Shown piece by piece: positions 3,636 through 5,355 of a stretch of 11,286 nucleotides of DNA. The notes beneath the pieces were generated by a model. That model searched no databases. It was not told the origin of the DNA and was given only the letters and a program-made list of their open reading frames with translations. The stretch comes from Escherichia coli (lineage in GTDB: Bacteria > Pseudomonadota > Gammaproteobacteria > Enterobacterales > Enterobacteriaceae). Every line of letters starts with the position of its first letter. The stretch's first letter is position 1. A program made the position numbers and the translations under genes. The stretch lies in NCBI RefSeq assembly GCF_003334765.1, contig NZ_QOWT01000056.1. The stretch is one strand, 5' to 3'.

Positions 3636-3685
3636 GATAATCATTGGATGGCACAATCAATTTTCGCTAATGATAACCATTCCCA
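3636..3685 (+). promoter_or_regulatory. Fur-box-like sequences upstream of and overlapping the yddA start codon
   Basis: Against the Fur consensus GATAATGATAATCATTATC: GATAATCATT at 3636-3645 matches consensus positions 7-16, and cTAATGATAACCATTccc at 3667-3685 matches about 15 of 19 with a 12/13 core (AATGATAACCATT). Consistent with iron (Fur) control of the yddA-yddB-pqqL cluster. Confidence 0.45.
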
Positions 3686-5355
3686 TTACGCTTCGTATGT
3701 TGATAGCAAAGTATCTCTGTCTGTTGAAGCCCTTTTGGCTGCGTAAGAATAATAAAACTTCAGTGTTGTTAATCATTATTATCCTCGCCATGATCCTTGG
3801 CGTGGTTAAAATTCAGGTCTGGTTAAACGACTGGAATAATGATTTTTTCAATGCGCTAAGCCAGAAAGAAACCGATAAGCTTTGGCAGCTTGTCCTTTGG
3901 TTCCCTGCCCTGCTGGGGATCTTTGTATTAATATCCGTAAACAAAACATGGTTAATTAAACTACTGACTATTCGCTGGCGCGAATGGTTAACAGATTACT
4001 ACCTTAATCGGTGGTTTGCAGATAAAAACTACTACTTCACGCAGATCTACGGCGAGCATAAAAATACAGATAACCCTGACCAACGTATCGCTGAAGACAT
4101 TCTCTTACTGATCAGCAAAACGCTCAGTCTTTCATTTGGCTTCATCCAGTCACTTAGCATGCTGATCACCTTTACCGTTATTCTTTGGGAAAGCGCGGGT
4201 ACGCTCTCATTCACTGTTGGTGGAACAGAATGGAATATCCAGGGGTATATGGTCTATACCGTCGTGCTCATTGTGATCGGTGGAACTTTATTTACCCATA
4301 AGGTGGGTAAACGTATTCGTCCGCTTAATGTGGAAAAACAACGTAGCGAAGCGACATTTCGAACAAATCTTGTGCAGCATAATAAGCAGGCAGAACTGAT
4401 TGCGCTAAGCAATGCTGAGTCTCTACAACGCCAGGAGTTGAGCGACAATTTTCATACCATTAAAGAGAACTGGCATCGTTTAATGAATCGTCAGCGGTGG
4501 CTTGATTACTGGCAGAATATTTATTCGCGCTCGCTTAGCGTTCTTCCCTACTTTCTGTTATTGCCGCAGTTTATTAGCGGGCAGATCAATCTGGGCGGAC
4601 TGATGAAATCGCGCCAGGCATTTATGCTGGTATCGAACAATTTAAGCTGGTTTATTTATAAATATGACGAACTTGCTGAACTGGCTGCGGTTATCGATCG
4701 CTTGTATGAGTTCCATCAACTCACTGAACAGCGCCCTACGAATAAGCCTAAAAATTGCCAACATGCGGTACAAGTGGCTGATGCGAGTATTCGTACGCCT
4801 GATAATAAGATCATATTAGAGAACCTGAACTTTCATGTTTCGCCAGGCAAATGGCTATTACTGAAAGGCTACTCTGGTGCGGGAAAAACCACACTGCTTA
4901 AAACATTATCCCACTGCTGGCCGTGGTTTAAAGGTGATATTTCTTCTCCTGCTGACAGTTGGTATGTGTCACAAACACCGTTAATCAAAACCGGCTTACT
5001 GAAAGAGATTATTTGTAAAGCACTTCCCCTGCCCGTAGACGATAAATCGTTGAGCGAAGTACTGCATCAGGTTGGTCTTGGGAAATTGGCTGCGCGTATT
5101 CATGACCACGATCGCTGGGGAGATATTCTTTCCAGCGGCGAAAAACAACGTATCGCCCTGGCACGATTAATTTTACGACGTCCGAAATGGATATTTCTTG
5201 ACGAAACTACCTCTCATCTTGAGGAACAAGAGGCTATCCGCTTACTGCGTTTAGTGCGTGAAAAACTACCCACAAGCGGCGTCATTATGGTTACACATCA
5301 ACCCGGTGTCTGGAACCTGGCCGATGATATTTGTGACATTAGCGCGGTTTTATAA
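3670..5355 (+). CDS. yddA: Fused ABC transporter (N-terminal SbmA/BacA-like membrane domain plus C-terminal ATPase), 561 aa
   Basis: The N-terminal ~330 aa are hydrophobic with multiple predicted TM segments. Walker A G-Y-S-G-A-G-K-T-T at 4867-4893, ABC signature LSSGEKQR, Walker B WIFLDETTS and H-loop VIMVTHQ are all present. The 561-aa length matches my recollection of YddA. The start codon is uncertain: there is no clear Shine-Dalgarno at 3670 and a Fur-like box overlaps it. Confidence 0.85.
   Translation: MITIPITLRMLIAKYLCLLKPFWLRKNNKTSVLLIIIILAMILGVVKIQVWLNDWNNDFFNALSQKETDKLWQLVLWFPALLGIFVLISVNKTWLIKLLTIRWREWLTDYYLNRWFADKNYYFTQIYGEHKNTDNPDQRIAEDILLLISKTLSLSFGFIQSLSMLITFTVILWESAGTLSFTVGGTEWNIQGYMVYTVVLIVIGGTLFTHKVGKRIRPLNVEKQRSEATFRTNLVQHNKQAELIALSNAESLQRQELSDNFHTIKENWHRLMNRQRWLDYWQNIYSRSLSVLPYFLLLPQFISGQINLGGLMKSRQAFMLVSNNLSWFIYKYDELAELAAVIDRLYEFHQLTEQRPTNKPKNCQHAVQVADASIRTPDNKIILENLNFHVSPGKWLLLKGYSGAGKTTLLKTLSHCWPWFKGDISSPADSWYVSQTPLIKTGLLKEIICKALPLPVDDKSLSEVLHQVGLGKLAARIHDHDRWGDILSSGEKQRIALARLILRRPKWIFLDETTSHLEEQEAIRLLRLVREKLPTSGVIMVTHQPGVWNLADDICDISAVL

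Follow-up and report, generated by a model that had tools for sequence, protein, structure and literature searches.

YddA of Escherichia coli, an ABC half-transporter of the YddA/BclA/Rv1819c clade encoded with a TonB-dependent receptor and a periplasmic protease

Rv1819c of Mycobacterium tuberculosis ('BacA'; PDB 6tqe and 6tqf) is a named cobalamin transporter and has been tied to the uptake of vitamin B12 and antimicrobial peptides (PMC3603451, PMC8442886). It is a predicted export protein, yet it has been implicated in uptake (PMC3603451). What is said here of Rv1819c draws on the titles of its PDB entries and on PMC3603451, PMC8442886 and PMC13316013. BclA of Bradyrhizobium is described as functionally similar to SbmA/BacA (PMC13316013), and B. 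cepacia depends on its YddA to be sensitive to the lasso peptide ubonodin (bioRxiv 10.1101/2022.03.09.483586). In a published phylogeny, SbmA was derived from a YddA-like ancestor (PMC13316013). FusD, from the ferredoxin uptake system of Pectobacterium and Dickeya, is a YddA homologue for which a role in import has been proposed and the absence of a periplasmic binding protein remarked upon; its transport function itself has only been hypothesised (PMC5095587, PMC6042079). The YddA family was still described as 'of unknown function' in a 2026 Nat Commun paper (PMC13316013).

The window analysed here is a stretch of 11,286 nucleotides of Escherichia coli DNA (NCBI RefSeq assembly GCF_003334765.1, contig NZ_QOWT01000056.1). 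A first-pass annotation of this DNA had described YddA as an SbmA/BacA-like half-transporter, with an architecture linked to peptide uptake rather than export.

Architecture and family placement of YddA

The yddA gene (3670..5355, + strand) is an ATG-initiated open reading frame of 561 codons plus a stop codon. Its product is an ABC half-transporter in which the membrane domain comes first and the ATPase forms the C-terminal part. The RefSeq coordinates were exactly the same, with the product named 'ABC transporter ATP-binding protein/permease', and the K-12-type yddA was 100% identical to the window sequence. In Pfam, the membrane domain matched ABC_membrane_2 best (PF06472; residues 28–301, E = 1.8e-43), followed over the same residues by SbmA_BacA (PF05992; residues 32–350, E = 2.3e-33). 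ABC_tran matched residues 383–515 (E = 2.8e-18). As sequence matches, all three were well past chance. The canonical exporter membrane family PF00664 reached an E-value of only about 2.7. All full-length YddA homologues listed had the same three Pfam domains.

Two AlphaFold2 models of YddA were both confident (pLDDT 88.3 for the full model including the nucleotide-binding domain (NBD), and 86.1). In the model with pLDDT 88.3, helices spanned residues 29–65, 68–131, 136–175, 193–239, 250–302 and 308–352, with a short helix at 241–246 and the NBD after them. As in type IV (exporter-fold) half-transporters, six long transmembrane (TM) helices reached the cytoplasm and one NBD was fused to them. 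YddA amounts to half of an ABC transporter and has the type IV fold, often called the exporter fold. Because the operon has no second ABC gene, YddA presumably forms a homodimer.

The membrane domain (residues 1–352; 3670..4725, + strand) consists of an N-terminal helix and the six long TM helices, as delimited by the model secondary structure, PF06472 and PF05992, and membrane-domain-only searches. The model further contained a periplasmic beta-hairpin at residues 178–191, and the short helix 241–246 lay within the TM4–TM5 loop. At the start of TM3, residues 135–139 form an NPDQR motif (4072..4086, + strand), a family signature common to Rv1819c and ABCD4, of which SbmA retained only QR in the alignment. 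Conservation was judged over 36 YddA homologues of 30–83% identity, in which D134, P136, D137, Q138, R139, I140 and D143 were invariant around this motif.

The NBD (residues 365–561; 4762..5352, + strand), delimited by ABC_tran and by the strands and helices of the model, had a complete motif set whose key residues were invariant or nearly so in the same homologues. The Walker A motif GYSGAGKT occupied residues 400–407 (4867..4890, + strand; G403, G405 and K406 invariant), and the Q-loop residue was Q435. The ABC signature LSSGE was found at residues 487–491 (5128..5142, + strand), with S488, G490, E491, Q493 and R494 invariant. Walker B and the catalytic glutamate lay in WIFLDE, residues 507–512 (5188..5205, + strand; D511 and E512 invariant), and the H-loop histidine H543 (5296..5298, + strand) was likewise invariant. 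A degenerate ATPase was rejected, as every motif was intact. The Pfam matches, the motif listing and the invariance across the 36 homologues bore out the earlier description of a single-chain fusion of a membrane domain and an ATPase with complete motifs.

Among solved structures, the best full-length match of YddA was Rv1819c (PDB 6tqe; E = 2.1e-67, residues 34–552). A profile built from 36 sequences gave full-length matches solely to Rv1819c (1.7e-149) and ABCD transporters (1e-115 to 1e-54). A membrane-domain profile ranked Rv1819c first (2e-73), followed by SbmA (8e-46), plant ABCD1 (2e-35), ABCD4 (2e-28), ABCD3 (3e-18) and ABCD1 (5e-11), and no transporter beyond Rv1819c, SbmA and ABCD members was found at E ≤ 10. 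In Foldseek searches with the full model, Rv1819c was again best (TM 0.85), and ATP-bound ABCD1, TAP, PCAT1 and MsbA superposed at TM 0.72–0.84. With the membrane domain alone, Rv1819c took rank 1 (TM 0.84) and SbmA ranks 2–5 (TM about 0.7), followed by ABCD4; TAP, MsbA and Atm1 appeared only at E ≥ 2.6e-7. The order for the membrane domain, Rv1819c, SbmA, then ABCD4 and other ABCD members, agreed across sequence, profile and structure, and the canonical exporters MsbA, TAP and ABCB1 were far down the ranking or gave no match. The NCBIfam models of CydDC and of type I secretion ABC proteins matched YddA in part, chiefly across its ATPase domain.

YddA combines PF06472 and PF05992, not PF00664, with a following NBD, and has Rv1819c as its nearest relative. 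This places it in the YddA/BclA/Rv1819c clade, whose members are driven by ATP and form the sister group of SbmA/BacA, the peptide importers that run on protons. A grouping with canonical exporters was rejected, given the PF00664 E-value of 2.7 and no such chain in the membrane-domain profile at E ≤ 10. The profile and structural comparison with SbmA/BacA suggested by the first-pass annotation put SbmA second to Rv1819c, and the clustering of the membrane domain with type I exporters, which it had named as contrary evidence, did not occur.

The six-helix core of SbmA/BacA (SLiPT) transporters is homologous to that of YddA, but these transporters have no NBD, whereas that of YddA is complete. 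The SbmA alignments to YddA started at SbmA residues 76–93, leaving the first 75–90 residues of SbmA unmatched, and YddA had only about 28 residues, one helix, before TM1. The N-terminal region of SbmA is its TM0a/TM0b domain (PMC8442886). The ladder glutamates E193 and E276 of SbmA aligned with E142 and E227 of YddA, and E203 and E287 with L152 and N238, so two of the four ladder positions were kept; a published mapping had the same outcome (PMC13316013). Opposite YddA residues 243–250 in the TM4–TM5 loop, adjoining helix 241–246, SbmA has an 8-residue gap. Coupling helices are absent from SbmA (PMC8442886), and the short loop helix that YddA retains is, going by the model, read as a coupling helix. 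The NCBIfam SbmA equivalog NF008306 scored 86.8 bits (E = 1.8e-24) on YddA, the cutoff being 492 bits. YddA as a true SbmA/BacA member was rejected on five defining features: the absence of an NBD, TM0, the full ladder, the loss of the coupling helix and the NF008306 score. The label 'SbmA/BacA-like' was right in that YddA is related to SbmA/BacA and does not resemble canonical exporters (Pfam, profile, Foldseek), but imprecise in that YddA fails these defining features.

Operon, regulation and distribution

yddA opens the yddA-yddB-pqqL operon, which is under Fur control. The second gene, yddB (5393..7765, + strand), starts 37 nt past the yddA stop codon and encodes a TonB-dependent outer-membrane receptor. 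NCBIfam assigned no family to YddB, and its identification came from a PDB sequence search: from residue 29 through to the C-terminus the sequence matches the solved structure 6ofr, and the best non-self solved match was the ferredoxin receptor FusA (4zgv, E = 4e-78). The third gene, pqqL (7810..10605, + strand; RefSeq start 7822), encodes a periplasmic M16 zinc protease according to NCBIfam and annotation. Starting at residue 27, PqqL matched the solved structures 6ofs and 6oft; the mature chain in 6ofs begins at this residue, consistent with a signal peptide. PqqL also matched, at about E = 1e-58, three M16 entries of the PDB (6b03, 6b05 and 6brs) that carry the name 'putative zinc protease'. 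We take these three structures to be FusC. No binding-protein gene was annotated in the operon or between ydeP and gad, and no TonB-like gene of the FusB type was present in the window or the 14.5-kb annotated region. A canonical type I/II ABC importer was rejected for YddA, in view of the fused membrane-domain and ATPase chain and the absence of a binding-protein gene between ydeP and gad.

A Fur box at 3666..3684, overlapping the yddA start codon, agreed at 15 of 19 positions with the 19-bp Fur consensus and was the best site in the window on both strands; no site in the window had three mismatches or fewer, the best having four. It is the published putative Fur box sequence (GGGAATGGTTATCATTAG; PMC3855560). 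The operon is co-transcribed, a fur mutation derepresses it, and in strain CFT073 iron chelation by itself did not induce it (PMC3855560). Just upstream of yddA, a consensus scan found a sigma-70 promoter-like site (3628..3657, + strand) with TTGCCA, an 18-nt spacer and TG-CACAAT, matching at 9 of 12 positions with an extended −10 TG; taken alone it is weak evidence. A hairpin after the ydeM stop codon (3427..3464, + strand; RNA fold −19.6 kcal/mol, z = −6.1 against shuffles) is likely the ydeM terminator, parting yddA from the upstream sulfatase genes. A consensus terminator scan of positions 3300–3800 gave no match and missed this hairpin because its T-tract is short. The hairpin falls within the annotated minus-strand small gene yneP.

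The trio of receptor, M16 protease and YddA-type ABC protein was found in E. coli and at four other gammaproteobacterial loci, namely in Dickeya (a Fus-type cluster), Orbaceae, Pseudomonas and one metagenomic contig. The order in Dickeya was TonB, receptor, M16, ABC. A 4-nt overlap joined the M16 and ABC genes in Dickeya and in Pseudomonas, and the Pseudomonas locus also carried an ECF sigma/FecR pair. A TonB homologue was present in the Dickeya cluster and absent from the Orbaceae and Pseudomonas loci. Remoter homologues (about 32–35% identity; Ferrovibrio, Trinickia) had no adjoining M16 protease, so that the association with proteolysis is confined to one subclade. In JGI annotation, relatives of YddA bear the name 'vitamin B12/bleomycin/antimicrobial peptide transport system'. 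Within E. coli, yddA was lost from about 15% of complete genomes and is therefore dispensable. The loss in about 15% of genomes extended to yddB and pqqL, and the one example that was mapped was a single joint deletion of all three genes.

Direction and cargo of transport

YddA is probably the inner-membrane, ATP-driven importer of a Fur-repressed, protease-associated import system that comprises YddA, YddB and PqqL and is homologous to Fus. The architecture, family placement, intact catalytic motifs, conserved gene neighbourhood and Fur box observed here underlie this explanation; that YddA pairs with itself, transports inward and carries a cargo of the kind proposed below is inferred. A substrate, probably an iron-containing protein, would cross the outer membrane via YddB and would be cleaved in the periplasm by PqqL. 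The product (peptide fragments, iron or a cofactor) would finally reach the cytoplasm through YddA at the expense of ATP, with no binding protein needed in the periplasm, as has been proposed for Rv1819c too. The operon context fits inward transport, as had been suggested before, with a TonB-dependent receptor, a periplasmic M16 protease, no binding-protein gene and a Fur box. Import by YddA is plausible. Counting against this explanation are the failure of iron chelation alone to induce the operon in CFT073, the remoter homologues without an M16 neighbour and the loss of yddA from about 15% of complete E. coli genomes. The PDB deposits of ABCD4 name it a lysosomal cobalamin transporter, and ABCD4 transports toward its ATPase side. 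ABCD1–3, the founding members of PF06472, move acyl-CoA away from that side, and since they share the fold and Pfam family of YddA, family membership leaves its direction unfixed.

The same outward-transporting relatives bear on an alternative in which YddA is an exporter, carrying a cytoplasmic compound or peptide to the periplasm, for example one processed by PqqL or released by YddB, or some toxic product that iron uptake generates. Such a role would suit the type IV fold and its superposition with ATP-bound ABCD1, TAP, PCAT1 and MsbA, the best Pfam match to ABC_membrane_2, and the incomplete NCBIfam matches to CydDC and type I secretion proteins, which lie mostly in the ATPase domain. We nevertheless regard export as unlikely. 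The nearest relatives on every measure (Rv1819c, SbmA and the cobalamin transporter ABCD4) are linked to uptake, an orthologue of YddA is needed for lasso-peptide uptake, the conserved partners are an uptake machine, the TonB-dependent receptor, and a periplasmic protease, and repression by Fur is typical for uptake genes.

Slightly less likely again is that YddA, like Rv1819c and BclA, imports hydrophilic compounds and peptides promiscuously, with a cargo unrelated to the products of PqqL and an operon link that reflects only shared regulation by iron or host signals. The homologues of Ferrovibrio-like and Trinickia genomes that stand alone, with no protease gene beside them, the JGI naming and ubonodin uptake by the B. 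cepacia YddA are consistent with this. However, the trio survives gene-order rearrangement in several gammaproteobacterial lineages, and the 4-nt overlap in Dickeya and Pseudomonas and the loss of all three genes in about 15% of E. coli genomes, jointly in the mapped deletion, also argue for a functional tie. It is very improbable that YddA is a true proton-driven transporter of the SbmA/BacA type with a vestigial ATPase: the SbmA_BacA match and the ladder equivalents E142 and E227 point that way, but the catalytic ATPase residues are all intact and invariant in the family, L152 and N238 replace the other two glutamates, the NF008306 score is far below its cutoff, and helix 241–246 is kept where SbmA has its gap.

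Within the preferred reading of ATP-driven import, it is quite possible, and we put it forward tentatively, that YddA performs the last step of protein piracy. It would import the peptide fragments that PqqL makes from a host protein captured by YddB, or an iron or iron-sulfur species bound to these fragments, powered by ATP and needing no binding protein. Incidentally, it could offer a second, Fur-controlled entry for antimicrobial peptides (bleomycin, lasso peptides, proline-rich antimicrobial peptides (PrAMPs)), which SbmA would mask in the laboratory. The piracy idea has been sketched for FusD, and novelty would lie in its demonstration rather than in the concept. Knowing the cargo and direction of YddA would round off the understanding of protease-associated import systems and could expose a second uptake route for peptide antibiotics, and yddB and pqqL lend the operon a fitness role in systemic infection by uropathogenic E. 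coli (PMC3855560). The present finding itself opens none of these prospects.

Comparison with known systems

The architecture of YddA, its kinship with SbmA and the hypothesis of binding-protein-free import are already in print, through Rv1819c, BclA, the B. cepacia YddA and ubonodin, FusD and the 2026 paper on SbmA/YddA evolution. The view that such import would be mechanistically unusual did not hold, as it has been published for Rv1819c, the B. cepacia YddA and FusD. The observation on SbmA/BacA is correct but ordinary, because both the kinship and the likely binding-protein-free import had been published.

Rv1819c has a single-chain membrane domain and ATPase like YddA, and both carry the DNPDQRI motif and a periplasmic TM3–TM4 loop. 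They differ in that Rv1819c has about 40 extra N-terminal residues (YddA residue 34 corresponds to Rv1819c residue 71), which form a TM0 helix capping the periplasmic side (PMC8442886) and are absent from YddA. Identity between the two is only 22–26%. Rv1819c has Q and N at the positions of E142 and E227 and, unlike yddA, is not within an operon with a receptor and a protease. The eukaryotic ABC subfamily D members ABCD4 and ABCD1–3 share PF06472 and the NPDQR motif with YddA, but are organelle transporters with 15–22% identity to it. BclA and the B. cepacia YddA have the architecture and clade of the E. coli YddA (PMC13316013), at an estimated identity of probably about 30–35%. Their genes are orphans, unlinked to a receptor and an M16 protease, and similar orphan contexts were seen in the Ferrovibrio-like and Trinickia genomes.

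The Dickeya Fus ABC protein (FusD type) shares 37% identity with YddA over 98% of the YddA length and has the same Pfam architecture. The partner proteins correspond as well: YddB is a homologue of FusA, and PqqL of the M16 proteases 6b03, 6b05 and 6brs. The ABC gene is the first in the E. coli operon but the last in Fus (fusB-fusA-fusC-fusD), and Fus has a dedicated TonB homologue, FusB, which the E. coli cluster does not. Although it differs from a Fus-type locus in this TonB homologue, the E. coli locus combines a FusA-like receptor, an M16 protease, a FusD-type ABC protein and regulation by Fur.

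Domain architecture and relatives of YddA

The yddA reading frame (window 3670–5355; coordinates exactly those of the RefSeq CDS) encodes 561 aa. Pfam assigned residues 28–301 to ABC_membrane_2 (E 1.8e-43), residues 32–350 to SbmA_BacA (E 2.3e-33) and residues 383–515 to ABC_tran (E 2.8e-18); ABC_membrane, the family of canonical exporter membrane domains, matched only at E about 2.7. A full set of ATPase motifs was found: Walker A (GYSGAGKT, residues 400–407), the Q-loop (Q435), the ABC signature (LSSGE, residues 487–491), Walker B with the catalytic glutamate (WIFLDE, residues 507–512) and the H-loop (H543). 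Across 36 aligned homologues (30–83% identity), G403, G405, K406, S488, G490, E491, Q493, R494, D511, E512 and H543 were invariant and Q435 nearly so. The Pfam domains and intact motifs confirmed the first-pass annotation of a membrane domain and a complete ATPase in one chain.

Residues 1–351 were compared with all PDB sequences. Matches were Rv1819c of M. tuberculosis (1e-26), the peptide importer SbmA (6e-13) and the eukaryotic transporter ABCD4 (3e-11), together with plant ABCD1 and ABCD3, and no further chain matched at E ≤ 10. The membrane-domain family profile retrieved Rv1819c (2e-73), SbmA (8e-46), plant ABCD1 (2e-35), ABCD4 (2e-28), ABCD3 (3e-18) and ABCD1 (5e-11), the following hit (E 0.15) being noise. 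In Foldseek searches of the PDB with the predicted full-length structure, Rv1819c ranked first (TM 0.85, E 6e-29), then ABCD1, ABCD3 and ABCD4, and after these TAP, PCAT1 and MsbA. With the modelled membrane domain only, Rv1819c was again first (TM 0.84), SbmA took ranks 2–5 (TM about 0.7) and ABCD4 rank 6; canonical exporters did not appear before E ≥ 2.6e-7. These rankings ruled out a grouping with canonical exporters. The membrane domain is therefore related to SbmA, as had been claimed.

The AlphaFold2 models were confident (pLDDT 88.3 for full length, 86.1 for the membrane domain). Both predicted a beta-hairpin at residues 178–191 (window 4201–4242) in the periplasmic TM3–TM4 loop, with flanks (LSGxLxF...IPGYMVW) that are conserved in the family and alignable to Rv1819c. 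In a dimer, this hairpin could help to form a gate or lid on the periplasmic side.

Genomic setting, expression and loss of yddA

Positions 75–11286 of the window showed 100% identity to E. coli chromosomes of the K-12 type. The first 74 bases, which look like one end of an IS5-family insertion sequence, matched at up to ~40 places per genome and on many plasmids; TTAG follows directly (75–78) and fits an IS5 target site. Since positions 1–420 were contiguous in none of the complete E. coli genomes of the collection searched, the source strain appears to be the only one with this IS5-like insertion ahead of ydeN. The sulfatase gene ydeN (455–2170), the anaerobic sulfatase maturase gene ydeM (2207–3379) and the annotated small gene yneP (3345–3467, minus strand, 40 aa) precede yddA; yddB (5393–7765) and pqqL (7810–10605) follow, and gadB starts just past the window end. 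YdeM passed the NCBIfam anaerobic sulfatase maturase model (505 bits, cutoff 349). Maturases of the RiPP radical-SAM/SPASM type, e.g. DynA, DarW and DarE, matched it strongly as well, though below threshold. Because ydeM adjoins the sulfatase-like ydeN, reading it as an ordinary sulfatase maturase is adequate.

A hairpin after the ydeM stop codon (3427–3464; −19.6 kcal/mol, z −6.1), within yneP, is probably the ydeM terminator; a consensus terminator scan made no call there. This strong hairpin suggests that yddA opens its own transcription unit, separate from ydeM. The best predicted Fur box in the whole window (3666–3684, 15/19 against the consensus) overlaps the yddA ATG and is the one published for strain CFT073, in which yddA, yddB and pqqL are co-transcribed, derepressed in a fur mutant and not induced by iron chelation alone (PMC3855560). 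A second Fur-like site (3768–3786, 14/19) lies about 100 nt into the coding sequence.

No Shine-Dalgarno sequence was evident before the annotated ATG (3670), and a promoter-like −10 hexamer ends just 12 nt upstream of it. Initiation at the in-frame ATG at 3697 (Met10) would bring the N-terminus to the length typical of most homologues, and an 83%-identical homologue starts at this position. In the model, the first four residues had pLDDT <50 and the first ten averaged 58. The true start codon may be the one at 3697.

A yddA match was absent from 792 of 5,426 complete E. coli genomes. In urine isolate U14A, the sole example mapped, a clean 6,301-bp deletion (window 3388–9688) starts 8 bp past the ydeM stop codon and ends inside pqqL. 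The promoter, yddA and yddB are gone, and pqqL, having lost its 5' two thirds, is a pseudogene; the match had the same extent in two other genomes. In several complete genomes, yddA is split by insertion sequences (ISVsa5, IS5, IS1, ISKpn26), and RefSeq names the fragments 'SbmA/BacA-like family transporter' and 'ATP-binding cassette domain-containing protein'.

Gene neighbourhood and proposed transport model

The receptor YddB matched the solved structure 6ofr, its next-best solved match being the ferredoxin receptor FusA (E 4e-78). The protease PqqL matched 6ofs and 6oft, as well as the M16 entries 6b03, 6b05 and 6brs, which we take to be the Fus protease FusC, at about E 1e-58. In Dickeya dadantii, the YddA homologue (37% identity) is encoded by the last gene of a TonB_C, Plug, M16, ABC cluster, a Fus-type operon. 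An Orbaceae genome also carried the receptor/M16/YddA trio, arranged as in E. coli (50% identity), and so did a metagenomic contig (48%). In Pseudomonas the trio follows an ECF sigma/FecR pair, and there, as in Dickeya, the M16 gene shares a 4-nt overlap with the ABC gene. No substrate-binding-protein gene was annotated from ydeP to gad.

The fold, clade membership, intact ATPase, conserved neighbourhood and Fur box are established by the comparisons above. As to homodimer, direction and cargo, we infer that YddA is probably a homodimeric, ATP-driven importer working without a binding protein, and that it probably carries into the cytoplasm what PqqL releases by cleaving a substrate imported by YddB. 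Fur represses the operon. Export by YddA is unlikely, with Rv1819c and SbmA as the nearest membrane domains on one side and, on the other, ABCD1–3, which belong to the same Pfam family and transport in the opposite sense. Somewhat less probable again is a promiscuous importer with cargo unrelated to PqqL products: in its favour, the Ferrovibrio-like and Trinickia homologues (about 32–35% identity) had no M16 neighbour; against it, the trio recurs elsewhere. A proton-driven transporter of the SbmA kind would share the membrane-domain kinship; with the ATPase motifs intact, we consider it highly improbable.

YddA among known transporters

Rv1819c, a fused TMD-NBD protein tied to B12 and peptide uptake, was described as nearer to E. 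coli YddA than to SbmA (Gopinath et al. 2013, PMC3603451). YddA was named a homologue of FusD, the proposed inner-membrane importer of the FusC cleavage product (Grinter et al. 2016, PMC5095587), and deletion of yddA in B. cepacia abolishes ubonodin activity (Do et al. 2022, bioRxiv 10.1101/2022.03.09.483586). An SbmA/YddA/BclA tree of 4,426 sequences has appeared in a study that used a YddA AlphaFold model (2026 Nat Commun, PMC13316013). Every element of the first-pass interpretation had therefore been published before, and the mechanism that it called unusual belongs to an accepted class. What was observed is correct and the reading of it partly right, but all of it was already known.

The description 'SbmA/BacA-like' holds for membrane-domain kinship, as seen by profile and Foldseek, and fails for family membership, which was ruled out by the ATPase domain, the missing N-terminal region, the ladder residues and a TM4–TM5 helix. 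The score against the NCBIfam SbmA equivalog was sub-threshold (86.8 bits, cutoff 492, E 1.8e-24). Since the HMMER alignment begins at about SbmA residue 87, the SbmA N-terminal region, its TM0a/0b domain (PMC8442886), has no counterpart in YddA. SbmA is without coupling helices and relies on a glutamate ladder (PMC8442886, PMC13316013). In the HMMER alignment, SbmA E193 and E276 correspond to YddA E142 and E227, whereas E203 and E287 correspond to L152 and N238. YddA has a short helix (residues 241–246) in the TM4–TM5 loop, where the adjoining residues 243–250 face an 8-residue gap in SbmA, and, unlike SbmA/BacA, a complete ATPase domain. These differences agree with PMC8442886 and PMC13316013. 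YddA is therefore an ATP-driven relative of SbmA, not SbmA with an added ATPase.
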